Notes under the pieces: model-generated
What the model saw: the letters and a program-made list of their open reading frames with translations, nothing else
Told to the model about the DNA's origin: nothing
Database searches by the model: none
Source of the DNA: an uncultured Acidobacteriaceae bacterium
GTDB lineage: Bacteria > Acidobacteriota > Terriglobia > Terriglobales > Acidobacteriaceae
Direction of reading: 5' to 3'
Length of the DNA stretch: 64,000 nucleotides
Assembly: GCA_963707205.1 (NCBI GenBank)
Contig: CAVPQE010000035.1
Coordinates: 8,164 to 72,163 of the forward strand
Part shown: positions 1 to 19,264 of the stretch, one piece after another
How the letters are laid out: each line of letters starts with the position of its first letter
Numbering within the stretch: the stretch's first letter is position 1
Made by a program: the position numbers and the translations under genes

Positions 1-130
1 GCACCGTGCGCTGTTTCGCATTGAACTGCACCTGCCGGATGCCATACACCTCACGCATCGTATCAATCGCCCGCATTTCATTCTCGCCGGGAACTGCGCC
101 GTAGTTGAAAACCACATCCAGATAAGTCAT
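1..130 (-). CDS. hypothetical protein, N-terminal part (runs off window edge)
   Basis: ATG at 130..128 with AGGA about 9 nt upstream; open to position 1 (MTYLDVVFNYGAVPGENEMRAIDTMREVYGIRQVQFNAKQRTV...). Below the ORF-track length cutoff; no family recognised. Confidence 0.35.
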   Translation of the reverse strand, partial: MTYLDVVFNYGAVPGENEMRAIDTMREVYGIRQVQFNAKQRTV

Positions 131-246
131 GGGTTCAATCCTTCGGTATGATGATTTGGAAGCGCGGGCCATCCCGCCGGATGAATCCAATATAGAGCAT
201 CGGCAATCGAAGAAGATAGTTTTCCTGCGCATCTGCGGCATCGCAT

Positions 247-2799
<2,553 letters not shown>

Positions 2800-2929
2800 A
2801 GCCCTTCGACAGGCTTTTGGGCAGTCTCTACTCCTTTCCATTGAGGCTGACGATTACCGTTTCGGATCTGTGCCGGCAGAAGAAACCAACACGACCTCCA
2901 ACCCCAAAGCAGAGAAAGAAGTTGTCAGA

Positions 2930-3373
2930 CTAGGAGTTCAGTGAGAGGCGGTACGCCGCGTTAATTTGTCGGACCACATGCTCCACCGCGAGCTTCAATT
3001 CAGGCGAGACTTCGGTTCCATGTTCGAATCGCCGTCCCTCAATTCCGTATACTTGCAGTCGCTCTGGCAAACGGTCTAGAACTCGAGCCAGTCGGATTGC
3101 AGCCGATAAGCCCAGTCCATGGGTGGATGCAGATTGGTCAGTAGGGAAGCTCGCTTTTTCGCCGTCCCACAGCCACACCGTGCCAAGGGACGCACCTGTC
3201 TCCACTGAGTCCACCACGACAACGTCGTCAGCTCCGTACCAAGCTTCGATGAGTTCCAGGGCCTCCCCAGAGCGAATCTCAGCTTCTACGCCAAAGTCTC
3301 GCAGCCGCTCGGCCACCAACGCTCCAGCGCCGTCGTCGCCTCGCTCCGGATTTCCGCAGCAGATAATCCGCAT
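2930..3373 (-). CDS. NiFe-hydrogenase maturation endopeptidase
   Basis: 147 aa. N-terminal MRIICCGNPERGDDGAG motif typical of HyaD/HoxW-type proteases. Lies 3 nt downstream of the large-subunit gene. Confidence 0.85.
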   Translation of the reverse strand: MRIICCGNPERGDDGAGALVAERLRDFGVEAEIRSGEALELIEAWYGADDVVVVDSVETGASLGTVWLWDGEKASFPTDQSASTHGLGLSAAIRLARVLDRLPERLQVYGIEGRRFEHGTEVSPELKLAVEHVVRQINAAYRLSLNS

Positions 3374-3376
3374 GGA

Positions 3377-4687
3377 TCAGACTCCGTCAGCCTCCGCCCG
3401 CTCCACCGTGAGCTTTAGAGAGTGTGTGGCACAGGAGATGCAAGGGTCGTAGTTGCGAATAGCCTGCTCACACTTCCAACTTGCTTCTTCCAACGGCCAC
3501 GCCACTAATCGCATGGCGTAGTCGCGTAAGTCGTCCTCGATCCGTTTCTGGTTTTGCGATGTGGGCGGGATAATCCTGGCGGCGATGATCAGCCCTTTTT
3601 CGTCCATGGCGTAACGATGATAGAGAATGCCTCGGGGTGCCTCGGTAATCGCCTGACCTACCCCGGCCTGATTCGGTACCTCAACTCGCGGTACGGGAGG
3701 AGGTTCGTATTCGCCGATGATTCGTAATGCTTCAGCGCACGCAAACACAATTTCCACTGAGCGAACCATGATGCTACGGAACGGATTCTTCACGGGAACA
3801 GCAAGTTTGACTTCTCGGGCCACTTGCTGTGCTACTTCGGGCAGCTTATCGAAATTCAAATTGAAGCGCGCCATGGGTCCCACCAGATATGAACTTCTTC
3901 CACGCACGACCGAGTGTAGCGCGTTCGAATGCTTCACATGCATTTCGACAAAGTGATCCTCATACTCGGCTGCGTCAATGTCCAGACCTCGATTCGATAC
4001 CAGCCGCCCTTCGTTGAATGGATACTCATCAGGATGACGGAGAGCCACGAATTCATAGTCCTGCTCGAAATCGGGGAATTCCAGATTGGCCGTCCAACGC
4101 GCGGTTTCGAACGAAGCATCCAGCGCCCATTCCACGTCCTCCACTAGTTCGCGCAGTTGTTGCTTGGTGGGTACTTTGTAGAAGCCTCCGACTGCTGCCG
4201 AGATGGGATGAATCTCGCGGCCCCCGAGCAGCGTCACAATTCGGTTGCCGATCTTCTTCAACCGTAACGCTCGCTCGACTACGGCTCGATGGTCCCGGGC
4301 CATGGCAATGGCGTCCTGGTAGCCCAGAAAGTCCGGCGCGTGCAGCATGTAGACGTGCAAGGTGTGACTCTCAATCCATTCGCCGCAGTAGAACAGTCGG
4401 CGGAGGAGGCGCACGGCGGGATCGATGCGAGTTCCCAATGCGCGCTCGATCGCGTGAATCGCGCTCATCTGGTAAGCAATCGGACAGATCCCGCAGATGC
4501 GAGCGGTGATATCGGGAGCTTCGGAGAAATGACGCCCCCGAAGGAAGGCCTCGAAGAACCGCGGCGGCTCATAAATCCTAAGCTTCACGTCCGCCACACG
4601 TTCGCCCACGAGTTTAATGTACAAAGCTCCTTCCCCTTCCACCCGGGCCAATGTGTCCACGCGGATCGTTCTACTATGGCCGCTCAT
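3377..4687 (-). CDS. hyhL: NiFe hydrogenase large subunit, group 3b-like (HyhL)
   Basis: 436 aa. N-terminal RICGICP and C-terminal DPCISCATH Ni-Fe ligand motifs followed by a 14-aa cleavable tail. 4-nt overlap with the small-subunit gene. Operon partners are HydB/HydG-type subunits. Confidence 0.9.
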
Positions 4688-5472
4688 TTGCGCTCATACT
4701 CCTCGCTCGTCTTGCGGAACTGCCAGGACCAGGCGTTGAATCCCCGGAAGGCACGCGTGATCTGCGCATCCGATTGACCGAGGATGTGGAGTTGGGCAGC
4801 CAGTGACGGGGTGTTCGGACTCTCCATCGGCCCGTAGCAGCCGTAGCAGCCTCGATCATAGCTAGGACACAGTGCCCCACATCCCGCCTGCGTCACTGGA
4901 CCGAGGCAAGCAATGCCTCGCGCTACCGTGATGCAGACATTGTTTCTCCGCTTGCACTCCAGGCACACGCTATACGACGGAATGTTCGGCTTGCGCCCCA
5001 GGAGCGTCGCCGCGATCAGCTCGATCAAGTGATATTTGTTGATCGGGCAGCCGCGCAATTCGAAATCCACGGGAACGTGCTCGGCAATTGGAGTCGATAG
5101 CTTTAGGGTGCTGATGAATTGCGGGGTCGCATACACTACGCGAATGAATTCATCCACATCTTTCCAGTTACGCAATGCCTGGATGCCGCCTGCAGTCGCA
5201 CACGCGCCGATGGTAACCAGCGTCGTGCACTGCCGTCGCACCTCTTGGATGCGCTGCGCATCGTGATGAGTAGTAATGGAGCCCTCTACCAGTCCGATGT
5301 CATATGGACCCTTCAGCATGGCGCGCGATGCCTCCGGAAAATAGGCGATGTCGACCGCCCCGGCTACGCCGAGCAGTTCATCCTCGGCATCAAGCAAACT
5401 CAGCTGGCAGCCGTCACAGGACGCAAATTTGAAGACCGCGATCGTCGGTTTGTGCTTGGTATCAGAGTTCAT
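4684..5472 (-). CDS. hyhS: NiFe hydrogenase small subunit (HyhS, NuoB-like)
   Basis: 262 aa. NuoB/20-kDa-type proximal cluster cysteines ([19 protein letters not shown]) plus additional C-terminal Cys clusters. Confidence 0.85.
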
Positions 5473-6304
5473 ACTTTTCCAACAGGGTGCGGATGTTCTC
5501 GTAAGGAAAGACCGGCCCGTCCCTGCAAATAAAGTACGGTCCGTACTGACAGTGACCGCAGAATCCGATGGCGCACTTCATGTTGCGTTCCATAGAGAGA
5601 TAAATGTCCTCGCGCTTGAGCCCGTGGGTCTCCAGTTCGCGAGTGACAAAGCGCATCATGATCTCGGGGCCGCAAACCATCGCGATCGATCGCGCCGGCT
5701 GCAACCGGGCGTACTTAAACAGCGTCGTCACTACGCCCACGTGTCCGCGCCAACTCAACCCGCCATAGTCCACGGTGACCAGAACTTGTGTGTCTGGTTG
5801 ACGGGCCCAACTTGACAGTTCTCTGCGATACAGAAGATCACGAGGACTGCGCGAGCCGTAGAGCACCGTCAGACGCCCGTACTGCTTCCGATTGAGCAGG
5901 ACGTGGTAAATCACTGGACGAAGCGGGGCCAATCCGATTCCGCCAGCAACCACAATGACATCGTGCCCTCGGGCTGCCTCAATCGGCCAGCCCGTGCCGA
6001 ACGGGCCTCGGACGCCAATGCCGTCCCCGACTTTCTGACTCACCAGCGCATGGGTTGCCTGACCCACCGAGCGCACGGTATACACAAGCTGGTCCCGCTG
6101 CAAAGCCTGGCCGCTAATGGAGATGGGCAACTCGCCCACCCCGAATACCCACAACATGCTGAATTGGCCGGGCTGGAATAAGCTTCTATCATTTTCCTTC
6201 TCCGGCTCCAGTGTCAGGGTGAACGTGTCGGGCGTCTCCTTGGCGACCCCGCACACAACGTAGGGCTGCGAAACCATTGGCTCGGTTGTTGTCGTAAGAG
6301 TCAT
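5462..6304 (-). CDS. hyhG: hydrogenase gamma subunit, FAD/NAD(P)-binding with 2Fe-2S (HyhG)
   Basis: The track ORF extends to 6517, but the ATG at 6304 forms an ATGA overlap with the upstream stop. From there 280 aa with a PyrK/FNR-like fold ([10 protein letters not shown]) and C-terminal [10 protein letters not shown] 2Fe-2S motif. Confidence 0.85.
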
Positions 6305-6762
6305 CGCCCGACCGCGTAAACATCGAGCAACTGGAGACGAGTCGCGTCCAGCCGCTGCTCCATGATTTGAGCGAAGCGCTTCAGGATTTCGTAACCCAGA
6401 TCGTGGTTCTCTTCGCACTTGATACGCAAACACTTGCCGTCGAGGGCTATGGCGCGCGTATCCTCGGCAGCGCGGGCGTGGAACTTCCACTGAAAGGGCG
6501 GCAGCAGCCACGACCACCCCAGGATTTCTCCCACACTGAGCGTGGAAACGATGATCGGCTTGTGCTGGGGTGCCACGACTTCCACCGCCACCCTGCCCCC
6601 GCGAATCAGATAGAAGGTGTTGGCTGGGTCGCCCTCTTTCAAAATGTAGGTGCCGGCCTTGAAATGAACGTTGGAGGCGCAGCCCACCAGCAGCGCTATG
6701 AAGTCACGATCTAGACCGGTGAAGAAAGGATGCTCCGCGATGATGCGCTCAAGTGTTTCCAT
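6301..6762 (-). CDS. stand-alone cyclic-nucleotide-binding domain protein
   Basis: 153 aa. cNMP-binding beta-barrel signature (FYLIRGGRVAV, GEILGWSWL, RAAEDTRAIAL). No HTH or other output domain. Overlaps both flanking hydrogenase genes. Confidence 0.8.
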   Translation of the reverse strand: METLERIIAEHPFFTGLDRDFIALLVGCASNVHFKAGTYILKEGDPANTFYLIRGGRVAVEVVAPQHKPIIVSTLSVGEILGWSWLLPPFQWKFHARAAEDTRAIALDGKCLRIKCEENHDLGYEILKRFAQIMEQRLDATRLQLLDVYAVGR

Positions 6763-7897
6763 GATCGTTCCCCTCCCGTATAGCCCGAGCTTCCTCAGTG
6801 ATATCGATTCCTACTGGACACCAGGCAATGCAACGTCCGCAGCCTACACATCCCGAAGTGCCGAATTGATCGATCCACGAAGCCAGCTTGTGGGTCATCC
6901 ATTGACGATAGCGAGCTTTGCCGGAAGTGCGAACGTTGCCCCCGTGGATGTACGAAAAACTTAGCGTGAAGCACGAATCCCAACGGCGCCAGCGCTCGGC
7001 TTGATCGCTGCTCACGTAAGTCACGTCCTCGACCGCGGTGCAGAAGCAGGTGGGGCAAACCATGGTGCAGTTGGCGCACGTCAGGCAGCGGGCGGCGACG
7101 TTGTCCCAGCGTGGATGGTCGAAGTTCTGGTACAGCAGGTCTTTGATGCCGGCAGTGTCGATGCTTCGCATCTGCTCGACCGAGGCCCGCTCCACCGCAG
7201 CTTCTGCCTCTCGAAGATCGGCGTCGGCAGCCGGACCGGTCTGCAGATCAGCTAACACTTCGACGCCGCGATTGCTCCCCGTCTGCACGACAAATCGGTG
7301 GCCGCCCGGTCCGATAAGTTCCGTCAGAGCCAAGTCAAAACCGCTTTGCGCGCGCGGTCCCGTTCCCATCGAAGCACAAAAGCACGTGGCCGCCGACCGC
7401 GTGCATTGCACTGCCACGATGAACACATCTTGGCGTAGCCCCTCGTAAATTGCATCCCGATACTTATCGCCGATCAACACGCGATCCTGAAGCTTGATGG
7501 CTGCCAAGTCGCAGGCCCGGACTCCCAGGAGTGCGTATCGGTGCTTGGGTCGCATCTCATTGTTCAGAATTTGGAAGGTCCCGCCTCGACGTTCGGCCGA
7601 CCACAACCGCACTTCGGCCGGGTGTAGGTACCTCTTCCAGCTCTGGGGTCCCGCGGCATACCCGAACAAGGCCTGATCCTCGCGGCGCTTTAGCCGATAA
7701 CAGCCGCGTTCCTGTTCGTCGGTCCAGCCTGCGGGCAATTGCGCAGCCGACTCGATGCGCTCGTAGACAATTGCCCCGTCACGTACGATAGGGCCAATGG
7801 TCTCGTAGCCCTTGCACGACAACCTTTCGATTAGTTTCTGTAGCTGGTCTGCGTGCAGGATCCTGCGCTGTTCTTCGGCCACTGTGATCACTTCCAA
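6749..7897 (-). CDS. hyhB: hydrogenase beta subunit, FeS protein (HyhB / AsrA-like)
   Basis: 382 aa with Cys clusters [16 protein letters not shown] and [12 protein letters not shown]. Start is TTG at 7897 or GTG at 7891 (the latter has GAAGG about 9 nt upstream). Confidence 0.85.
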
Positions 7898-7960
7898 TGC
7901 CTTCTAGAGTTTTGTCCAAGGCTCAATGATCCGAGTCAGGGTGCCCAAAACTCGCACGTC

Positions 7961-8410
7961 TTAGGCACAAGCCTGAACAGCTCCCGAAACCAACTTCGCT
8001 TCACACTGAATGTTCACGTTCAAGACGCTCGAAACCGGACAGTCGCGTCGAGCGGATTCCACAGCCTCTGCGAATTGACCGTGTTCGAAATCGCGCGTTC
8101 GAGCGACGATCTTGAGGTGTGCTCCCACAATTCGTAATGACTCTCCCACAAAGTCCAGGGTCAAAGCGGTGTTGGTTTCAACCTCGACGGGTCGGATTCC
8201 CACCTTGGTCATTTCTACCGCGACCATTCTGGACATGCTGGAAGAAATAGCGGCGGCCAGCATTTCGCAGGGCGATGTAGAAGTCGCTACCAGACCCGTG
8301 AGCGACCCGAAGGTGTACTTGCTGTTGTTCAAGACCCCGCTCGGAGTGGAAAGCGTGCCTTCTCCGGCGTACGGACCGTCCTTCCAAATAGCGTGTGCTT
8401 CGCGCACCAT
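7961..8410 (-). CDS. osmC: OsmC/Ohr family peroxiredoxin-like protein
   Basis: 149 aa. OsmC-fold length and the two conserved cysteines (SPCEMLAAA and RDCPVS). Confidence 0.8.
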   Translation of the reverse strand: MVREAHAIWKDGPYAGEGTLSTPSGVLNNSKYTFGSLTGLVATSTSPCEMLAAAISSSMSRMVAVEMTKVGIRPVEVETNTALTLDFVGESLRIVGAHLKIVARTRDFEHGQFAEAVESARRDCPVSSVLNVNIQCEAKLVSGAVQACA

Positions 8411-8440
8411 TTGCGGCCTCCCGCGTTTTGGGCGAGTAAT

Positions 8441-8838
8441 CTATTCCGCCCACATTGGTGTTCCGTTTGGCTCCCGAAAGGCCAGGGTCTGGTTGCCCCG
8501 AACCACGGTGCGGGCGATCAGGGCCTCTTGTCCGTGATAGATGATTCTCGACCCGACTACCTGGATCTGGTCCCCCTTGCTAAAGCTCAATTTATTGTCG
8601 TTTAGAAACCGAGTCGGACCAACGTGTACCTGGAACGTGCCGTCCGCCGCTTTCACCAACAGGTGAGTTCCTACGTCGCCGCTGATCGGGCAGTAAAACT
8701 CCTGCACGTCTTGCACTACGCCTTGTACGGTTCTTTCGTTGGAAGCGCTGTAAACTGGCACCCGGTGCCTCGGGCTGGTAAACAGTAGAATTGCAAGGAA
8801 ACAACTGCAGTACCCATAACTGTCTGCGGGATTCTCAT
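8441..8838 (-). pseudogene. exported small beta-rich protein; signal peptide separated from mature domain by a 1-nt frameshift
   Basis: Strong RBS AAGGAGGAG plus ATG at 8838 opens a frame (MRIPQTVMGTAVVS...) that stops after about 40 codons. The 106-aa ORF 8441..8761 is open upstream in another frame through a hydrophobic stretch (CSCFLAILLFTSP) with no start. Restoring one base gives 133 codons. Confidence 0.5.
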
Positions 8839-8878
8839 AGCGCTCCTCCTTTTCGAGACTTGGTGCCGCACAACTCTG

Positions 8879-9403
8879 TCAGGCCGCCGCGGGGGTTCTT
8901 TTGTGTCTCGTCGCCGCCTTGAGCAGCTCGACCTTGAGCATCCCCTCCTGCAGTTCGATCACTGCTCCCTGAGGATCAACTTCTGTCGGCAGGTCGATCA
9001 GCCGCAATACCCGGTCGGGACACCAATCGACACGCTCGATTTGTCCTTCCTCGATCTGGAAGGTGGTAGCTTCTCTCTTTCCAAGGATGGCAACACGTCT
9101 GGGTTCAACGCTGACCTGGAGTTCCTTTTCTGCGAACCCGAAGACGTTGGCGCGAATACTGAGCCGTTCGTCTGATTCGGACGTCGCAATTGATACGGGA
9201 CACAAAAACTCCGACTCCGCCCTGAACCAATCCTCCCAGTCGTGGCCATGCTCACGGCCGCGCTTTTCGAACAACTCAAAAGCCCTGCGAGCAATCGCAA
9301 GTTGCACTGGTTGCATCTCCCACCGCAGCTTTTCGGGATCTTGCGATTGCAACAGCGTGGTTGGCGGTTCAGCTGTGAGAGCAGACATTTTGGTAGATTT
9401 CAT
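8879..9403 (-). CDS. DUF2934-like N-terminal region fused to Hsp20/alpha-crystallin domain
   Basis: Start placed at ATG 9403 (AAGGAGGG 5 nt upstream). N-terminal ARRAFELFEKRGREHGHDWEDWFRAE resembles DUF2934. C-terminal half has the ACD pattern (LSIRANVFGFAEKELQVSVEPRRVAILGKRE ... GMLKVEL). Confidence 0.7.
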   Translation of the reverse strand: MKSTKMSALTAEPPTTLLQSQDPEKLRWEMQPVQLAIARRAFELFEKRGREHGHDWEDWFRAESEFLCPVSIATSESDERLSIRANVFGFAEKELQVSVEPRRVAILGKREATTFQIEEGQIERVDWCPDRVLRLIDLPTEVDPQGAVIELQEGMLKVELLKAATRHKRTPAAA

Positions 9404-10122
9404 AAGACCCTCCTTCGAGCAATGCAGGTGGAAGGGGATCGCTCGGTCGCTTGTCGGAGCCTGCAAAGAGGCTGAAGCGAGCGGCTGGGCTCAATTTGCT
9501 AGAGAACACTTCTACACTTTGCATTTTCCTCGCCGCCTTCTTCGTTTGCCGTGATCCACGTCACTACGCGGCATATTTCTTTGGAGACAAGTCGAGATCA
9601 AATGGCGTGACCGTAATGCGTCGCCTGAAGCTAGATCCGCCTGGATGCGACAGTGCCGCATTTTTGCCGGGAAACCGTTTTGAGGTGCTGGGCGGGAACC
9701 GAAAGTGCGACACGGGTTTCGATTTGTCTGATTCGGTTGTGCCTATGAATAAAAACTGCAATGTCGAAGGTGAACCCGCTGACTGCCCGACCTTGGGGGC
9801 TTTCTGCGCTTGTTTGTTGAACTCACGATTTCAACCCATGATTCGCATGCCTCTCACGACTTCCCGGGGACTTAGAAGGTTCGGCTTGGGACAGTTCCGA
9901 AGCCACCCTGTCGTGCCGCTTGCAAGCGGCTCTCGTGGGTTTAGGAAAGCAGCCCTTATGTTCAAGAAAGAAGAGTGTGGTCGAGTCTGCCCTCGTTCGG
10001 CTCAGACTTCCATGTTTATCAGTACTTCTTAAAGTCGAACCGACCCGACATACCATTCGCAGAAGCCTTGTGCTGTGAGCGCGATCACAAGGCGATTGCA
10101 AGAGTTCTCTCTTGATAACGGT

Positions 10123-10137
10123 CTTGGCACTGCCAAG
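10123..10137. promoter_or_regulatory. perfect palindrome CTTGGCA-C-TGCCAAG, candidate operator
   Basis: 7-bp arms with a 1-nt spacer, about 87 nt upstream of the 10224 start, in a long low-GC intergenic region. Confidence 0.2.
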
Positions 10138-10223
10138 AAATCACCGTTAACTGTGACCAGCGGTACAGCCACCACTGTCAACCAGCGAGAACATAGGCAG
10201 TAAAAACAATTTCCGCTGGAGGG

Positions 10224-11573
10224 ATGGCCGTGAAGAGAGTGTTGATTCTTGGTGCCGCAGGCAGGGACTTCCATAACTTTAATGTCTTCTTCCGTGATAA
10301 CTCCGACTACCACGTAGTCGCATTCACAGCCACACAGATTCCTGATATTGCCGGGCGCCGGTATCCGCCGGAGCTAGCAGGGAGCTTGTATCCAGAAGGC
10401 ATTCCTATTCGCGAAGAGAAAGATCTGGAGAGTCTGGTCGCGGAATACGACATTGATGCCGTGGTGTTTTCCTACAGCGACATTTCTCACCAGAATCTGA
10501 TGCATCTCGCCTCGCGTGCGGTAGCTGCGGATGCCGACTTTTGGCTTTTGGGAACCGGGCGCACGCAACTCAAGTCGTCGCTGCCTGTGATTTCCGTGTG
10601 TGCCGTGCGAACGGGATGCGGCAAGAGTCCGGTCTCGCGCCTGGTCGCCGCAGAGTTACGCCGCCGGGGTCGAAGGCCAGTGGTCATTCGACATCCCATG
10701 CCTTACGGAGACCTCGCGGCGCAAGCTGTGCAACGTTTCGCTGCCATGGAAGATCTCGACCTTCAACAATGCACGATCGAGGAACGCGAAGAGTATGAAC
10801 CGCATATCACTCAAGGGACCGTGGTGTATGCGGGAGTGGACTACGGAAAAATTCTCGCGCGGGCCGAGAAAGAAGCGGATGTCATTTTGTGGGACGGAGG
10901 CAACAACGACACTTCTTTTTATGCCTCCGATCTGGAGATCGTAGTCGTAGATCCGCATCGTGCGGGTCATGAATTGTCCTACTTCCCCGGTGAAGTCAAC
11001 CTGCGGCGCGCGGATGTGATCGTGATCAATAAGGTAGACACCGCAGCGCAGCGCGACCTGGAGACGGTTCGCCATAACATCAAGCTCCACAACCCGAAGG
11101 CTGTTGTTTTTGAGATGGCGTGCCGAGTTTCCGTTCCCCAGCCGCATCTCGTGAAAGGACAGCGCGTATTGGTGGTGGAGGACGGTCCCACACTCACTCA
11201 CGGAGAGATGCCCTATGGCGCCGGCGTGGTCGCGGCCCGGCAGTGCGGGGCGGCAGAACTCGTCGACCCGCGGCCTTATGCCGTCGGATCGATCCGCGGC
11301 ACCTACGAACGTTATGGGCACCTCACGAACCTCTTACCCGCCATGGGTTACAGCGCCATGCAGAGACACGAACTGGAGGAAACGATCCGCCGGACTCCGT
11401 GCGATCTGGTGCTGATCGCCACTCCGATCGACCTCAAGCGGGTGATCAAACTCGACAAGCCGAGCCTCCGCGTGACCTATGAAGTGGAAGAACTCACCAA
11501 GCCCGGACTGGCCGAACTGCTTGCCCAGTTCACGCACAAGCACGAGCCAGCACTGGCAGGAGTCGGAAAATGA
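10224..11573 (+). CDS. COG2403 / cyclic 2,3-diphosphoglycerate synthetase-like P-loop protein
   Basis: 449 aa. N-terminal VLILGAAGRDFHNFN and P-loop-like CAVRTGCGKSPVS. Family recognised from memory only. Stop overlaps the OTC start (ATGA). Confidence 0.7.
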   Translation: MAVKRVLILGAAGRDFHNFNVFFRDNSDYHVVAFTATQIPDIAGRRYPPELAGSLYPEGIPIREEKDLESLVAEYDIDAVVFSYSDISHQNLMHLASRAVAADADFWLLGTGRTQLKSSLPVISVCAVRTGCGKSPVSRLVAAELRRRGRRPVVIRHPMPYGDLAAQAVQRFAAMEDLDLQQCTIEEREEYEPHITQGTVVYAGVDYGKILARAEKEADVILWDGGNNDTSFYASDLEIVVVDPHRAGHELSYFPGEVNLRRADVIVINKVDTAAQRDLETVRHNIKLHNPKAVVFEMACRVSVPQPHLVKGQRVLVVEDGPTLTHGEMPYGAGVVAARQCGAAELVDPRPYAVGSIRGTYERYGHLTNLLPAMGYSAMQRHELEETIRRTPCDLVLIATPIDLKRVIKLDKPSLRVTYEVEELTKPGLAELLAQFTHKHEPALAGVGK

Positions 11574-12541
11574 AAGGCAAAGATTTTCTCTCGATTCGAG
11601 ATTTCTCGCCCTCGGAGATCCAGTATCTGCTCATTCTTGGGCGCCAGGTTAAGGCTGACCCGACCGCCTATAGCACGGCACTCCGGCGCCGGACTCTGGC
11701 CATGATCTTCGAGAAACCCTCATTACGCACCCGCGTGACTTTTGATGTTGGCATCCAGCAACTGGGCGGATTTTCACTCTACCTGTCTCCCGCTGAGATC
11801 AATCTGGGTAAACGGGAGTCGGTGTACGACGTGGCCAAGAACCTGGAACGCATGGTTCAGGGCATCATGGTCCGGACCTTTGACCACGAAGTGGTTGTGC
11901 AGATGTCGCGGTACGCCAGCATTCCAGTCATCAACGGGCTCACCGACTACAGTCATCCCTGCCAGGCGATGGCGGACTACTTCACCATTTGGGAGGCTAA
12001 AGGCAATCTCGAGGGTCTGAAGATTGGGTTTGTCGGCGATGGCAACAACGTTGCGCGCTCGCTGATGTTTACCGGAGCCCAGTTAGGTGCGCATGTCTGG
12101 GTGGCCACGCCTCCAGGGTATGAACTCGACGCGGAGTCTGTGAAGTGGGCTCGCCAGCGCGGCGCTGAGACCGGTGGCACTTGCACCACAACCAATGACC
12201 CCGAGGAGGCGGCTTCCGGCGCGGATGTGATCTACACCGATGTCTGGGCAAGCATGGGGCAAGAGGCGGAAGCGGAAAAGCGGAAACATATCTTCCTCCC
12301 GTATCAAGTCGACACGACTCTGTTCCGCCGAGCCAAACGAGATGCCATCTTTCTGCACTGCTTGCCTGCGCATCGCGGCGAAGAAGTTACCAACGATGTT
12401 ATCGACTCACCACAGTCGCTGGTATTTCAGCAGGCGGAGAACCGGCTGCACGCTCAAAAGGCGATCATGCTGGAACTGATGAAAGGTGAGTTCGTCAAAT
12501 TGCCGGGACTGGTCGAGTTGCAAGAGTTGATGCACGTCTAG
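11570..12541 (+). CDS. argF: ornithine carbamoyltransferase
   Basis: 323 aa. SLRTR carbamoyl-phosphate motif, HPCQ, DVWASMG, HCLPAHRGEEV. Confidence 0.9.
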   Translation: MKGKDFLSIRDFSPSEIQYLLILGRQVKADPTAYSTALRRRTLAMIFEKPSLRTRVTFDVGIQQLGGFSLYLSPAEINLGKRESVYDVAKNLERMVQGIMVRTFDHEVVVQMSRYASIPVINGLTDYSHPCQAMADYFTIWEAKGNLEGLKIGFVGDGNNVARSLMFTGAQLGAHVWVATPPGYELDAESVKWARQRGAETGGTCTTTNDPEEAASGADVIYTDVWASMGQEAEAEKRKHIFLPYQVDTTLFRRAKRDAIFLHCLPAHRGEEVTNDVIDSPQSLVFQQAENRLHAQKAIMLELMKGEFVKLPGLVELQELMHV

Positions 12542-12546
12542 GAGCA

Positions 12547-13551
12547 GTGCACCTTATGAAGACCATACTCCTTGCCATTGGCGGAAATTCCCTGATTCGC
12601 GCGGGAGAAAAGGGAACGATCGCCGAGCAAAGGGAAAACGCCCAGCGGACAGCGGTCCAGGTCGTCGGCTTGATTCGTGCCGACTACCGGATCGTGCTCA
12701 CGCATGGCAATGGTCCGCAAGTTGGGGCAGAACTTCTGCGCTCGGAACGGGGCGCGAGCCAGGTTCCTGGGCACCCGCTGGACGTTTGTGGCGCCTCGAC
12801 CCAGGGTGAGATCGGATATCTTCTCGAGCAATCGTTGCAAACCGAACTGCAGCACGCGGGTCTGCACGTGCCGGTTACGACGGTTCTTACTCAGAGCCTG
12901 GTCTCGCCGGACGATCCCTCGATGAAGCATCCCACCAAGCCCATCGGTCCTTTCTATTCGCGTGTCGATGCCGAGGAACGCCAACGCCTCTTGGGATGGG
13001 AGATCGTGGAGGACGCAGCCCGCGGTTATCGCCGGGTGGTACCTTCTCCGGACCCGATTGACATTGTTGAATTGGAGGTCATTCGAGATCTGGTCAAGCA
13101 GGGCGTGCTGGTCATCGCGTGCGGTGGCGGAGGGATTCCTGTGCTCTGGAAGAACGACACATTGCAAGGGGTGGAAGCTGTCATCGACAAGGATCGCGCC
13201 TCCGCATTGCTCGCCTCGCGCCTCGGCGTCGATCTGTTTGTGATTTCCACGGACACCGACTTTGTGTACCTGGACTACAAGAAACCAACGCAGTGTCCGC
13301 TGCATCGCGTCGGCGCGGCTGAGTTGGAGCAGTATGCGCGGGCGGGTCACTTTCCACCCGGGAACATGGGCCCCAAAATCGAATCCGTATTGCGCTTCTT
13401 AAGCCAAGGCGGGAAGGAAGCCATTATTACTTCTTGCGAGAATCTGTGCCAGTCGGTGGTTGGATCTGCTGGAACCCACATGTTCCCGGATCGCGACCGT
13501 GTGGAAATCAAGCGAAACGCAGAGATCGAACTTCCGGTGGGAGGACGCTAA
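12547..13551 (+). CDS. arcC: carbamate kinase
   Basis: 334 aa. AIGGNSL N-terminus, THGNGPQVG motif, and the amino-acid-kinase-fold C-terminal half. Confidence 0.9.
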   Translation: MHLMKTILLAIGGNSLIRAGEKGTIAEQRENAQRTAVQVVGLIRADYRIVLTHGNGPQVGAELLRSERGASQVPGHPLDVCGASTQGEIGYLLEQSLQTELQHAGLHVPVTTVLTQSLVSPDDPSMKHPTKPIGPFYSRVDAEERQRLLGWEIVEDAARGYRRVVPSPDPIDIVELEVIRDLVKQGVLVIACGGGGIPVLWKNDTLQGVEAVIDKDRASALLASRLGVDLFVISTDTDFVYLDYKKPTQCPLHRVGAAELEQYARAGHFPPGNMGPKIESVLRFLSQGGKEAIITSCENLCQSVVGSAGTHMFPDRDRVEIKRNAEIELPVGGR

Positions 13552-14528
13552 TGCCCCAGCCGACAATCACGACTCGCAAGCCAAACCAGTCTCCTACGTT
13601 GGACTCGCCGCTCAGAGGTGGGATGACCTTGAAGCACGTCGTCGAGTCTCAGCAATTCACCGTTCCCTTGCTCATGGAATTGTTCGAGCGGTCGCGCGGC
13701 ATGGAGCGCGTGGTGGCGCGGGGAGGCTCCCTCGATTATCAGAACCGAATCATGACCACTCTTTTTTATGCGCCTTCGACCCGTACTCGACTCTCGTTCG
13801 AGGCGGCCATGCATCGCTTGGGCGGGAGGGTCTTGTCGACGGAGCACGCGGGCGCGTTTTCTTCGGAGGTCGAAGGCGAGCAGGTCGAGGATTCTATCCG
13901 CATTATCGGCGGTTACTCGGACGTGATCGTCATCCGACACACCGAAGATGACGGTGCGCGACGCGCCGCGGAAGTCTCGTCCGTGCCGGTGATCAATGCC
14001 GGCGATGGAAATGGCGGGCAACATCCGACCCAGGCTTTGCTTGACCTCTACACAATTTACCGGCAGCGCCCGCTCGATGGCCTGAGCGTCGCCATTATTG
14101 GCGAGTTGGACAAAGGGCGTACAGCAAGATCGCTGGCCTATCTGCTGGCCAAGTTTGAACGGGTGAAGATGTTCTTCGTCAGTCCGCCGCAGCTCCAGAT
14201 GAAAACCGACATTCTGGGGTATCTCGATGAGCATGGCGTCCGCTACGAACTGGAGTCGAATATTGACCGCGTGATTGGGGAAGTGGACGTGGTTTACCAG
14301 ACCCGAATCCGGCCCGAGCGAGTCCGGGACGTGAACGGCCTCAGAGGTTATGCCATTGATTCGACTGTTGTGCAGCGCATGAAGCCGGACGCGCTGATCC
14401 TTCATCCGTTGCCCCGCACGGTCGAGTTAGACAAGTCCGTCGATGCCGACCCGAGAGCGATGTATTTCCGCCAAGCCAGGAATGGGCTTTACGTGCGGAT
14501 GGCATTGTTGACCATGCTGCTGGAGTAG
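13551..14528 (+). CDS. aspartate-carbamoyltransferase-like transcarbamylase (atypical)
   Basis: Start at ATG 13551 overlaps the carbamate kinase TAA by 1 nt. 325 aa. STRTRLSFE, QHPTQ and HPLPR motifs match the ATCase type, but the KKGE and RxQxER positions are altered (see findings). Confidence 0.8.
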   Translation: MPQPTITTRKPNQSPTLDSPLRGGMTLKHVVESQQFTVPLLMELFERSRGMERVVARGGSLDYQNRIMTTLFYAPSTRTRLSFEAAMHRLGGRVLSTEHAGAFSSEVEGEQVEDSIRIIGGYSDVIVIRHTEDDGARRAAEVSSVPVINAGDGNGGQHPTQALLDLYTIYRQRPLDGLSVAIIGELDKGRTARSLAYLLAKFERVKMFFVSPPQLQMKTDILGYLDEHGVRYELESNIDRVIGEVDVVYQTRIRPERVRDVNGLRGYAIDSTVVQRMKPDALILHPLPRTVELDKSVDADPRAMYFRQARNGLYVRMALLTMLLE

Positions 14529-14593
14529 AAGCAGCGAGTAGCGCTGCACGACGACTAGGAACAAGATAACTGCACAATCGGCGCTTACCCTCG

Positions 14594-15145
14594 GTGATGG
14601 AGGAGTTCATGACGAAAGAGATTGGGAGTGTACGGCCAGCGGATCTTGAGTCGCAGTGGCCGGCAACCATTGCATCGTTGATTGTCGGCACTGCGTTTTT
14701 TGCCTTGTGGTTCTGGTTGCTGCCACCCTGGCTTGGCTTTCGAGTTGATGTGGCGCGCGTGGCACAGTGGCGATGGATTGCTGTTCTCCCATCGGTGCTT
14801 GGGTTTGCGGTAGCCATACGATGCATCTGGGATTTCGGACGGACGGGACATGGAACGCCCGCGCCCATCGTCCCTCCGAAGCGGCTGGTCGTGGTCGGCT
14901 TCTACCAGTATGTTCGGAACCCGATGTATGTCGGGTTTTTCGTCGGGTGGATCGGATTGTGGGTGGTGTTCGGGCGGGCGAGTTTACCAGCGATCGCGGG
15001 AGCTGTGGCTGTGGTGCTCGGAGTAGCTCTGTTTGTGCAACTGTATGAGGAGCCCACCCTGCGAAAGATGTTCGGCGAGGAGTACGAGGAATATTGCCGC
15101 AATGTGCGACGGTGGCTACCACATATGCGGGCGTGGAAGAAGTAA
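14594..15145 (+). CDS. ICMT/PEMT-family membrane methyltransferase
   Basis: 183 aa, multi-TM. C-terminal GFYQYVRNPMYVG ... EEPTLRKMFGEEYEEY motif. Confidence 0.7.
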   Translation: MMEEFMTKEIGSVRPADLESQWPATIASLIVGTAFFALWFWLLPPWLGFRVDVARVAQWRWIAVLPSVLGFAVAIRCIWDFGRTGHGTPAPIVPPKRLVVVGFYQYVRNPMYVGFFVGWIGLWVVFGRASLPAIAGAVAVVLGVALFVQLYEEPTLRKMFGEEYEEYCRNVRRWLPHMRAWKK

Positions 15146-15220
15146 GAGAACGTTGCGGAGACGAGCCGTGCCGTACCGGATTTCTTTCCTAACCAACCGA
15201 TCGAAAGGAACTCGTAACTT

Positions 15221-16443
15221 ATGACAACGCAACTCATAGAGAAACCCTTACGGACCGAGGACTTCGTCGAACTCGAGAATCAGTATGGTGCCCATAACTA
15301 TCGTCCGCTCGACGTGGTGATCGAGCGCGCGGAAGGCGTCTGGGTGTATGACGTTGAGGGCAAACGTTACCTCGATTGCCTGGCTGCGTATTCCGCGGTG
15401 AATCAGGGGCACTGCCATCCCAAGATTCTGCAGACTCTGGAGGAGCAGGCCCAGAAAGTCACTCTCACCTCGCGCGCCTTCCGCAACGAGCAATTGCCTC
15501 TGCTCTACAAGGAACTCCATGATTTGACCGGGTTCGACATGGTTCTGCCTATGAACTCAGGGCGCGGAGGCTGTCGAAACTGCGATCAAGACGGCTCGCA
15601 AGTGGGGTTACAAGATTAAGGGCATCCCCCAGGACAAAGCCGAGATTATTGTGTGCGCCAATAATTTTCATGGCCGCACCGTCACTATCGTGAGCTTCTC
15701 CACCGACGAACAATACCGCGATGGCTTCGGTCCCTTCACTCCGGGATTCAAAGTCATTCCCGTTCGGCGATGCGCGCGCCCTCCGCGAAGCCATCACTCC
15801 CAACACCTGCGCTTTTCTAGTGGAGCCCATTCAGGGCGAGGCGGGGATCGTCATTCCACCCAAGGGATTTCTCCGGGAAGCGGCGGCAATTTGCCGCGAG
15901 AATCAGGTATTGCTGATGGCCGACGAAATTCAATCCGGTCTGGGACGAACTGGCAAGCTCTTTGCCTACATGCACGATGCGGTCGTGCCCGACGTGTTGA
16001 TCATTGGCAAGGCGCTCGCTGGCGGGTTCTATCCGGTCTCGGCCGTATTGGCGTCTCGCGAGATTCTCGGCGTGTACAACCCTGGCGACCACGGAAGCAC
16101 CTTCGGCGGCAACCCCATGGGCTGCGCCATCGCCCGGACCGCGCTACGCGTCCTCATCGAGGAGAAGATGGTCGAACGTTCCGCCGAACTGGGCGCTTAT
16201 TTCCTGACTCTGCTGCGGACGCTGCGCAGTTCAGATTTGAAAGAGGTACGGGGCAAAGGTTTGTGGATCGGCATCGAACTCCGCAGCCCAGCGCGCCCCT
16301 ACTGCGAGGCGCTCAAGGAGGAAGGAATTCTGTGCAAGGAGACGCATGACCGCGTGATTCGCATCGCACCACCGCTCGTCATCAGTCGTCAGGAGATTGA
16401 CTGGGCCTTTGAGCGAATCGCGAAAGTGATTCAGCGGCATTGA
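15221..16443 (+). pseudogene. rocD: ornithine aminotransferase disrupted by two +1 frameshifts
   Basis: Three ORF pieces in frames 2, 0, 1 read continuously as an OAT: ...VLPMNSG | [40 protein letters not shown]...GFKVIP | [11 protein letters not shown]...EPIQGEAG.... The shifts are at the GGG run 15560..15562 and the CCC run 15759..15761. Length minus 2 nt gives 407 codons. Confidence 0.85.
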
Positions 16444-16681
16444 TCTGCAGCACAAAGAAGTCCGCGAGTTGGGACAGCAACCTGGCAGACGATATTATTG
16501 ACCAGCTCAAGAAGGATCGGGAGAGGTCTTTCAGTAATTACTAAGCTCCGGTCTATTTTGGTTTCTACCGGCCAATGTGGCCAAAAAAATGTGGCATCCG
16601 TATGACTGATGCATGCGCTCCGTGCCAGAGTGAACTTGGGCTAAAGGGTAGGGGACTGAATTCCGAGGTAAGTCGCGTTGC

Positions 16682-16921
16682 TTGATCCAGGGGCTTAAGG
16701 AGAAAGTAGTACTCGTAACCGGAACGAATAATCCTTACGGCATCGGCGCCGGAGTTGCGCGAGCGTCTGCTGCTCAAGGTGCGAGGGGTCCTTGCATAAG
16801 CATCCAGCTGCGTTATCTTCAAACATTGACCGAAATCGGGGTGGAAAGGAACACTACTTTGGTTTTCCCCGTGCCAGTGGACATATTCTCGCGCATCACC
16901 AAGCTCCGGGAGAAAGTCTAA
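16682..16921 (+). pseudogene. short-chain dehydrogenase N-terminal remnant
   Basis: Only the first ~35 residues (LKEKVVLVTGTNNPYGIGAGVARASAAQGA) look like an SDR Rossmann N-terminus. The rest of the ORF does not, and there is no room for a full SDR before the next gene. Confidence 0.3.
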
Positions 16922-16981
16922 GCCCAGCGCCTTGGCGCCCGCAGTTTGCCAGGAGGTGAGGTGTGACATGCGGAGCCAAAT

Positions 16982-17212
16982 CTAGGACTGCTTCCGTATC
17001 TCTTGATCCAGTTTTTTCATCAGGCTTTCTCTTAATTCCTGACCTACCGACACTCTTTTATCAAGCTCCGCTTTCGTTACGACGCCTTTCTCGATTAACA
17101 ACTCGGCTAAGGCCGAGGACTCAGCAAGAGCCTGTGTCGCAAACTTCATCGTATCGGCCAGCACGGGGATCAGCGCGGCGAACTCGCCGCTAATAGGCTT
17201 GTTTACGTGCAT
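16982..17212 (-). CDS. hypothetical small helical protein
   Basis: 76 aa. ATG at 17212 with GAAGGAGAA 7-9 nt upstream; protein-like composition. Confidence 0.55.
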   Translation of the reverse strand: MHVNKPISGEFAALIPVLADTMKFATQALAESSALAELLIEKGVVTKAELDKRVSVGQELRESLMKKLDQEIRKQS

Positions 17213-18238: not shown

Positions 18239-19264
18239 GTGTCCCAAATGCGGAAAGACGTTTTTACCGGTCGCTGGGTAATCATGGCTGAGGCCACGAC
18301 GGTACGGCCCTCCGATTTTCATTTCAAGAAATTCGTCAGGGAGACGACATTCTGCCCATTCTGCGAAACCAACGAAGCCTCCACGCCGCCGGAAGTCTTC
18401 GCAATTCGCCGTCCGAACTCGTCCGCGAACGGGCCGGGCTGGTCCGTTCACGTGGTACCCAACTCCGACCCACGATTACGGATCGAAGGCGAATTGGGAC
18501 GGCGTGCCGAAGGGTTCCACGATCTAATGAACGGGGTGGGCGCACACGAGATAATTGCCGAGACGCCTCGCCACGACCGTAGCCTCCACGAATTCGAAAT
18601 CCACGAAATCCGTGACGTAATCCGAGCGTACGTGGCGCGCATGGTCGATCTGGAGGGCGATAAGCGGATGCGCTACGTGCTGATCTTCAAGAACCATGGC
18701 GAAGAAGCTGGCGCTCACACCATTAGTCATTCGATCTCGCAATTGATGGCCCTCTCGGTAACCCCGCGCACAGTTAAGACCAAGCTTATAACTGCTCGCG
18801 ACTATTTTGCTTTGAAGGAACGATGCATCTACTGCGATGTGCTCGAACAAGAGCTAAAGCAGCGGCAGCGATTGATCGCGGAGAACGAGGATTTTGTTGC
18901 GTTTGCTCCTTTCGCTTCGCGTTTTCCGTTCGAGATGGCAGTATTTCCCAAAGCTCACAACAGCGCCTTCAGCCGCATCAGCCCAGGGCAGGTTGAAAGT
19001 CTAGCCGGGATCCTGCGCGAGGTCTTGCAGAAGTTAGATCACACTCTGGGGGGGCCGCCCTACAACTTATCGCTGCAAGACAGACCCTTCCTGCGACCAA
19101 GAGCAGGGTATTGGAACTCCATCGAAGACGACTTCCACTGGCACATGGAGATACTGCCGCAGATTGCCCGTATCACAGGATTCGAATGGGCGTCCGGGTT
19201 TTTCTACAATCCAGTTCCGCCGGAAGTTGCTGCTCGATGTCTCTCGCCTGTTGCAGATGCGTGA
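18239..19264 (+). CDS. galactose-1-phosphate uridylyltransferase-family (HIT branch III) protein
   Basis: 341 aa. CPFC zinc motif near the N-terminus, two half-barrel repeats, FHWHME second-half motif. The active-site pentapeptide reads HSISQ. Confidence 0.75.
   Translation: MSQMRKDVFTGRWVIMAEATTVRPSDFHFKKFVRETTFCPFCETNEASTPPEVFAIRRPNSSANGPGWSVHVVPNSDPRLRIEGELGRRAEGFHDLMNGVGAHEIIAETPRHDRSLHEFEIHEIRDVIRAYVARMVDLEGDKRMRYVLIFKNHGEEAGAHTISHSISQLMALSVTPRTVKTKLITARDYFALKERCIYCDVLEQELKQRQRLIAENEDFVAFAPFASRFPFEMAVFPKAHNSAFSRISPGQVESLAGILREVLQKLDHTLGGPPYNLSLQDRPFLRPRAGYWNSIEDDFHWHMEILPQIARITGFEWASGFFYNPVPPEVAARCLSPVADA

Follow-up and report, generated by a model that had tools for sequence, protein, structure and literature searches.

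Does a protein with the fold of an aspartate carbamoyltransferase (ATCase) remain an ATCase when residues that contact aspartate have been exchanged? The question is raised by a gene in a 64,000 nucleotide stretch of DNA, here called the window, from an uncultured Acidobacteriaceae bacterium (assembly GCA_963707205.1, contig CAVPQE010000035.1, positions 8,164 to 72,163 of the forward strand). The gene, given the working name X, is at 13551–14528 of the window. It encodes a 325 amino acid ATCase-fold transcarbamoylase paralogue with an apparently rebuilt acceptor site, and lies directly 3' of a carbamate kinase (CK) gene in what looks like an arginine operon. All operon features described here for the window are on the + strand, and residue numbers such as K84 are those of E. 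coli PyrB. A sequence-only reading of this DNA had proposed that the substrate specificity of X is altered. From the sequence comparisons presented here, there is an even chance that X is an active transcarbamoylase of new acceptor specificity that is coupled to CK.

Substitutions in the acceptor half of the active site

The X open reading frame is intact, with an ATG at 13551, a TAG at 14526–14528 and 325 codons. Both transcarbamoylase domains are identified by Pfam, OTCace_N over residues 28–170 and OTCace over residues 176–322 of the protein. The ATCase motifs are retained, these being STRTR (76–80), R129-H130, HPTQ (158–161), GRT (R190), R252 and HPLPR (285–289). Of these, STRTR, HPTQ, GRT and HPLPR had been named in the sequence-only reading, whose description of X proved accurate throughout. 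HMMER alignments were made to the solved ATCases of Arabidopsis (6YPO), M. jannaschii and P. abyssi, of which Arabidopsis PYRB 6YPO is the best match (314 bits, 52–55% identity). The AF2 model of X, a monomer built from a 102-sequence alignment, has a mean pLDDT of 93 and only residues 1–24 are poorly defined; the use of 32 close homologues as input gave a pLDDT of 57. Foldseek with the X model found ATCases only, with TM 0.87/0.91 to Arabidopsis PYRB.

There is no gap near either of the two disputed motifs in the alignments to the solved ATCases. The X sequence 'FSSEVEGEQVED' pairs with Arabidopsis 'FSSAAKGETLED', and 'QTRIRPER' pairs with 'QTRIQRER'. Because these alignments are free of gaps, E. 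coli Lys84 corresponds to Glu108 in X (codon GAA, 13872–13874) and Gln231 to Arg254 (codon CGG, 14310–14312). Both replacements had been noticed by eye, and both persist after proper alignment. Glu108 is part of the equivalent of the 80s loop, S104-S-E106-V-E108-G-E-Q111-V (13860–13886), and Arg254 is part of T251-R252-I-R254-P255-E-R257 (14301–14321), the counterpart of the ATCase RxQxER motif. K84 and Q231 are aspartate contacts, and RxQxER is stated to be present in all known ATCases (PMC4581275).

As a reference for the 121 members of the X clade, 106 full-length canonical ATCases were taken from a library that holds 1.8 billion representative proteins. In this canonical set 50 positions reach at least 90% conservation, and the X clade retains 47 of them. 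The only canonical-conserved positions that are altered are K84, D162 and Q231. Position 84 is E in 118 of the 121 members of the clade and K in all 106 canonical sequences, while position 231 is R in 115 of 121 and Q in 106 of 106. Position 162, which is D in 99% of the canonical ATCases, is E in every member of the clade (Glu185 in X, 14103–14105). This third change had gone unremarked, as had several others. E50, present in 91 of 106 canonical sequences, is Ala in X, and among less strictly conserved sites G/A82 is Glu106, T/S87 is Gln111, K164 is Asp187 and K232 is Pro255. A single residue is inserted ahead of HPTQ. In the 121-member set Glu106 is E in 119 and Gln111 is Q in 117.

The importance of K84 for catalysis in E. 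coli is reportedly known from mutants made in the Kantrowitz laboratory. E. coli mutant work from the same laboratory is also said to have described a hydrogen bond from D162 to Q231 and the role of E50 as a domain-closure residue. A literature search for mutant data on K84, Q231 and D162 found nothing beyond a 2015 review.

The contacts to carbamoyl phosphate (CP) are all intact in the X clade. The S, T, R and T of STRTR are invariant in its 121 sequences, as are R105, H134, Q137, R167 and L267. On these alignments the acceptor half of the active site has been rebuilt in a targeted way and the CP half left untouched, which is not the outcome of decay, chance or error. The 120 closest homologues (81–93% identity), from Terriglobales and Ca. 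Sulfotelmatobacter metagenomes, have a near-universal loop SSE[IV]EGEQ and second motif TRIRPE, and every one of them is named ATCase. Hundreds of Terriglobales and Ca. Sulfotelmatobacter database entries give an X-type protein this name, a label that is probably wrong where pathways are to be reconstructed. No member of the wider clade has K at position 84, the residue there being E, D, A, N or Q. The constant features of the wider-clade loci are the absence of Lys84 and the presence of Glu106 and Arg254; Glu185 and Gln111 are each altered in one locus, with K at the Gln111 position.

A strain-specific defect, an assembly error or a decaying pyrB duplicate might also generate such a gene. The K to E and Q to R replacements are each one-base changes, and the neighbouring ornithine aminotransferase (OAT) gene has two frameshifts in this assembly. 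This explanation is refuted here and retains a vanishingly small probability. More than 100 independent sequences from metagenomes and genomes have the same residues. The X frame is intact, at 81–94% identity, across 80 GTDB species genomes, all of them metagenome-assembled and many with isolate names that include bog, fen, palsa or SPRUCE. X also belongs to an ATCase lineage different from that of the pyrB in its own genome. With only 34% identity between the two proteins, X as a recent duplicate of this pyrB was ruled out.

The junction with carbamate kinase

The stop codon of the CK gene (12547–13551) and the ATG of X share one base, 13551. A GGGAGG Shine-Dalgarno sequence is present upstream of this ATG, within the CK gene, and the GGGAGGACGCTA-ATG junction with a TAATG/TGATG stop-start overlap occurs in about 48 of the 80 related species genomes. 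Residues 1–24 of X (13551–13622) are rich in Pro, Thr, Ser and Gln and predicted to be disordered, with a pLDDT of 46–54 over residues 1–20. Their sequence is variable among the relatives and the start is conserved. Met25 (13623) was considered as the start of X and ruled out by the conserved upstream ATG, the GGGAGG and the stop-start overlap. The N-terminal extension suggested earlier is therefore real as judged from the conserved start and Shine-Dalgarno sequence, and the same junction shows X to be a gene with the signals of translational coupling to CK.

Coupling of this kind could also be expected if X were a partner protein with a regulatory role or with no catalysis of its own. It would then bind CP as a trimer and dock on CK or on ornithine carbamoyltransferase (OTC), perhaps through its N-terminal tail, so as to channel or buffer CP. 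The strictness of the stop-start coupling, the joint gain and loss of CK and X, and the disordered extension with its conserved start are in keeping with this. So are the loss of K84 and, in the sister enzyme X' described below, even of R54. Such a role is nevertheless unlikely. All catalytic and CP-binding residues are invariant in the 121 sequences and would not be needed in a scaffold, and because every catalytic residue on the CP side is invariant, a purely structural or regulatory X is less likely. The acceptor-side residues have been swapped for new conserved ones, with no drift. Loss of the lysine need not abolish activity, as OTCases function without an equivalent, having Q82 or, in the human enzyme, His (PMC4581275).

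The operon and its distribution

The genes are ordered ArcE-like, OTC, CK, X, a PEMT-family methyltransferase and OAT. The ArcE-like gene and OTC overlap by 4 nucleotides (ATGA), there is a 5 nucleotide gap between OTC and CK, and CK and X overlap by 1 nucleotide. The first gene (10224–11573) encodes a 449 amino acid putative arginine synthetase, an enzyme catalysing arginine + ADP + Pi <-> citrulline + NH3 + ATP. It has weak LpxK/CobW Pfam hits and close homologues named 'cyclic 2,3-diphosphoglycerate synthase' or 'predicted GTPase'. Annotations of this type, occurrence in Acidobacteria and frequent adjacency to arcB and arcC have been described for ArcE homologues (Michimori et al. 2024, PMC11032458). 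The 449 amino acid protein is a putative orthologue of the characterised ArcE (TK2200), as judged from annotation and context.

The OTC gene (11570–12541), in the arcB-type position, scores 396.7 bits with TIGR00658 (cut-off 280.85) and its product has the DVWASMG and HCLP motifs. The CP motif of this OTC is SLRTR in place of the usual STRTR, with DxxxSMG and HCLP kept. CK scores 371.1 bits with TIGR00746 (cut-off 358.25) and is the sole arcC match in the genome. The 183 amino acid PEMT/ICMT-family membrane methyltransferase (14594–15145; Pfam PEMT, E = 4e-12) is an optional insert between X and OAT. The OAT gene (rocD, 15221–16443) has been disrupted by two +1 frameshifts. Both pieces are recognised by NCBIfam Orn_aminotrans, and an intact relative aligns across three successive frames, at 15221–15562, 15561–15761 and 15751–16440. 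OAT is intact in most relatives, and the frameshifts may be homopolymer assembly errors in this assembly or may reflect real decay to a pseudogene. A scan of 9000–17000 for promoters and terminators found sites no more numerous than in shuffled sequence. Further 3', a GalT-like open reading frame at 18239–19264 scores 112.7 bits, far below the NF008724 cut-off of 448.

X was found in 60 of 401 sampled genomes of the order, in 19 of 70 genera, and ArcE in 69. Within the genus of the window its distribution is patchy. ArcE is present in 59 of the 60 genomes with X and in 10 of the 341 without (Fisher p = 6e-59, with shared ancestry ignored). Among the 80 species genomes the order ArcE-OTC-CK-X-OAT is conserved in 67, with the methyltransferase between X and OAT in 10 of these 67; in other genomes this gap contains a different small gene or none. 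CK is directly upstream of X in 79 of the 80, and OTC, CK, X and OAT remain together where ArcE has been inverted or relocated. In other Acidobacteriota families the same operon is present with X at 69–74% identity, having A, D or Q at position 84, and in one of these lineages the second motif is TQIRPGR, a swap of RxQ to QxR.

Two reduced operons are natural comparators for what the CK-X module adds. One (locus L032, G574:C2, 7493–11180) has ArcE, OTC and OAT without CK and without X, while the other (L034, G651:C13, 7838–10220) has ArcE and CK alone, followed by RtcB. The conserved adjacency of CK and X, together with their joint absence from the first of these, indicates that CK and X act as one insertable module. 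Averaged over 61 complete operons, identity to the window amounts to 88.4% for X, 82.3% for CK, 87.0% for OTC, 87.0% for ArcE and 89.2% for OAT. On these identities X is under constraint at least equal to that on its partners, a sign of strong purifying selection.

Relatives of X and comparison with known enzymes

In a maximum-likelihood tree the X clade (100% SH-aLRT) is placed within the ATCases of plant, archaeal and E. coli type, far from the PyrB of its own genome. Its sister (98% SH-aLRT) is X', a protein of another Acidobacteriota family with 54% identity to X. The X' gene (L039, G211:C8, 8401–9324) begins at the end of a CK gene, in a cluster (6067–16657) that encodes YgeY (582 bits), CK, X', a ThrC-like PLP enzyme, SsnA (469 bits), a YgfK-like protein and a selenium-dependent XDH-like protein (XdhD). 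This looks like a reductive uric-acid degradation cluster with X' in the YgeW slot, and a non-orthologous replacement of YgeW by X' is possible. The three canonical-conserved positions altered in X are also altered here, to P84, N162 and E231, and in addition R54 is L and H265 is S.

A third ATCase-like gene, P0139 (L123, JGI metagenome 3300044712, 6001–6942; locus 1–7514), is located directly after CK. Its product is without K84 and Q231, reading SIRTR, 'SSEMAG' and 'TQLSKDH', and the cluster includes AllH, an amidase, two amidohydrolases and a nitroreductase. More than one cluster for the catabolism of ureido compounds thus has an ATCase-fold gene that lies after CK and is without K84 and Q231. 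A canonical pyrB-pyrI pair in another Acidobacteriota family (L041, G078:C132, 6274–9783, minus strand), in which K84 and Q231 are kept, is followed directly by CK and OTC. This may be a CK-fed anabolic CP cluster.

Compared with the ATCases proper (Arabidopsis PYRB 6YPO/6YS6 and E. coli PyrB), X has the same fold and CP-site residues, R167, R229 and HPLP, along with the 47 retained positions. It differs from them at K84 (E), D162 (E), Q231 (R) and E50 (A), so that RxQxER becomes RxRxER, and in the insertion before HPTQ, the 24 amino acid N-terminal tail and its presence as a second copy beside CK in an arginine operon. Linkage to the pyrimidine pathway was not found. On this evidence X is a member of the transcarbamoylase superfamily that is not to be filed as PyrB.

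Other members of the family were considered and rejected. X as an OTCase was excluded by HPLP instead of HCLP, the lack of an SMG loop and a TIGR00658 score of 119.9, against the cut-off of 280.85, and X as a PTCase by motifs and profile scores. Identity with ureidoglycine transcarbamylase (UGTCase) was excluded by HPLP, Glu108 and R252/R254 in place of H(T/S)LP, Lys and S/K. For YgeW, no model (TIGR03316 / NF005538) was among the 15 NCBIfam families listed for X.

The UGTCase of Rubrobacter xylanophilus (PMC4581275) is otherwise instructive, being an ATCase-like protein, annotated as ATCase or pseudo-ATCase, that has an altered acceptor site and was recruited to catabolism. Unlike X it has kept the lysine of the 80s loop (K106), has H(T/S)LP, and has S258 and K261 replacing R229 and Q231 (PMC4581275). 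YgeW carries out 2-ureido phosphorolysis of 2,3-diureidopropionate and feeds the CK YqeA in reductive uric-acid degradation (PMC12507026). It is therefore a catabolic transcarbamoylase paired with CK for ATP, and it is the enzyme whose place X' fills in the Acidobacteriota cluster. The two differ in that YgeW is an enzyme of the knotted branch, and in that X is found in an arginine cluster rather than a purine cluster.

The operon itself resembles the ArcE-ArcB-ArcC system of Thermococcus kodakarensis (PMC11032458; PMC13260591). The points of resemblance are the clustering of OTC and CK, both above the curated cut-offs, with an adjacent ArcE-like gene, and the lack of an arginine deiminase match in the genome. 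The arginine synthetase pathway of T. kodakarensis has three enzymes, whereas here X is a fourth and OAT a fifth fixed member of the operon.

Carbamoyl phosphate genes elsewhere in the genome

The genome is of 5.55 Mb and 99.97% complete, and contains four transcarbamoylase-family genes, which are pyrB, argF and the OTC and X genes of the window. The pyrB is of B. subtilis type (NF002032, 347 bits), on another contig, and is followed directly by the dihydroorotase gene pyrC. The argF is within argC-argB-argF-argG-argH, and carB is present (1483 bits). Arginine deiminase (arcA) was not found genome-wide, the highest score being 33 bits where the cut-off is 489. The catabolic-looking context that had been remarked on is borne out by the ArcE-OTC-CK-X-OAT arrangement, the lack of an arcA match and the location of carB elsewhere, and X is not the only ATCase-like gene, a canonical pyrB having been found as the earlier reading proposed to check. 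No pyrI or pyrC neighbours X. Canonical PyrB is also encoded in all 25 of the other X-carrying genomes tested. Since every X carrier tested has a canonical pyrB, X would never be needed as the pyrimidine enzyme, and it is presumably not working as a pyrimidine ATCase.

Aspartate or another acceptor

Several observations weigh against a new acceptor specificity, or against the direction of reaction proposed below. The two arginines that bind the aspartate carboxylates, R167 and R229, are retained. The general NCBIfam ATCase model, TIGR00670, scores 288.2 bits on X, above its cut-off of 236.95, whereas with the second ATCase model, NF002032, the score of 255.5 bits is below the cut-off of 263. 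The variability of position 84 in the wider clade means that Glu108 may not be a ligand. Arg254 could take over the charge of Lys84. The phosphorolytic direction is drawn from context only, and the operon has no obvious producer of a second ureido substrate.

In the main rival explanation X is still an aspartate-specific ATCase that has been rewired, with Arg254, held by Glu185, supplying in cis the charge that Lys84 supplies in trans. X would then be an isozyme of the arginine operon that diverts arginine-derived CP to carbamoyl-aspartate for pyrimidines, or does the reverse. The retention of all CP contacts along with R167 and R229, the TIGR00670 score, the freedom of position 84 and the lineage with the RxQ to QxR swap, which still has one Arg and one Gln, are all compatible with this. 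There is also a precedent in Thermococcus kodakarensis, where the ArcE-ArcB route supplies CP for pyrimidine synthesis (Michimori et al. 2026, PMC13260591). A rewired ATCase is possible but doubtful. K84 and Q231 are without exception in the 106 canonical ATCases, and RxQxER is described as universal (PMC4581275). E50, usual in canonical ATCases, is Ala in X. The genome already has pyrB-pyrC and carB, and the sister X' and the more distant P0139, with the same positions altered, are in catabolic clusters unrelated to pyrimidines. The altered specificity originally suggested for X is thus favoured by the alignment, by paralogy and by the catabolic context, while use of aspartate with Arg254 replacing Lys84 stays compatible with the sequence.

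If X does have a new acceptor, it would be a catalytically competent, CP-dependent enzyme descended from an ATCase of plant/archaeal type. Its acceptor half has been rebuilt at the triad 84/162/231 (K to E, D to E and Q to R), with further changes at E50, G82, T87, K164 and K232. The CK-X pair is a fixed two-gene module within ArcE-OTC-CK-X-OAT, the 'arginine synthetase' route, in peat-soil Acidobacteriota. X would interconvert CP and an N-carbamoyl compound other than carbamoyl-aspartate. Because of where its relatives are located, the enzyme would most likely run as a phosphorolytic one that hands CP to CK for the gain of ATP, and so be a second source of CP beside OTC.

With Arg254 invariant and R190 still in place, the acceptor probably has a carboxylate or carbonyl at its far end. 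A search of the operon flanks for a producer of the second ureido substrate found no consistent additional gene, and those present in some genomes only are an OPT transporter, an ammonium transporter, a 241 amino acid protein of unknown function and a methyltransferase. Since there is no such producer in the operon, the second ureido compound would need either to be imported or, speculatively, to be formed from a second guanidino substrate by ArcE. A changed acceptor fits the strong purifying selection on X and the presence of its sister enzyme in a different catabolic cluster.

Implications

The 47 of 50 result, the behaviour of CK-X as a module, the RxQ to QxR swap and the presence of a sister enzyme in the YgeW slot are new here. 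It is probable that X represents a new specificity class that is systematically mis-annotated. The fuller proposal could equally well be right or wrong: that X founds a class with a specificity other than aspartate, belongs to the bacterial arginine synthetase operon as its regular fourth enzyme, and provides peat Acidobacteria with a second ATP-yielding phosphorolysis of a ureido compound through the co-translated CK. In its general form, this proposal is that an ATCase-like gene without K84 and Q231 directly 3' of CK marks undescribed catabolic transcarbamoylases, of which X, X' and P0139 would be examples.

Three of 50 invariant positions have been switched in X, and its sister, in another pathway, has altered the same three differently. 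The X/X' pair therefore offers a compact way into the question of how the ATCase fold encodes acceptor specificity. Peatland Acidobacteria are major players in peat carbon and nitrogen turnover, and how X is named affects the reconstruction of pathways there. It was only in 2024 that the arginine synthetase pathway was reported, with three enzymes, and to these the bacterial operon adds a tightly coupled extra transcarbamoylase. This implies a missing reaction or a missing substrate, which is directly testable.

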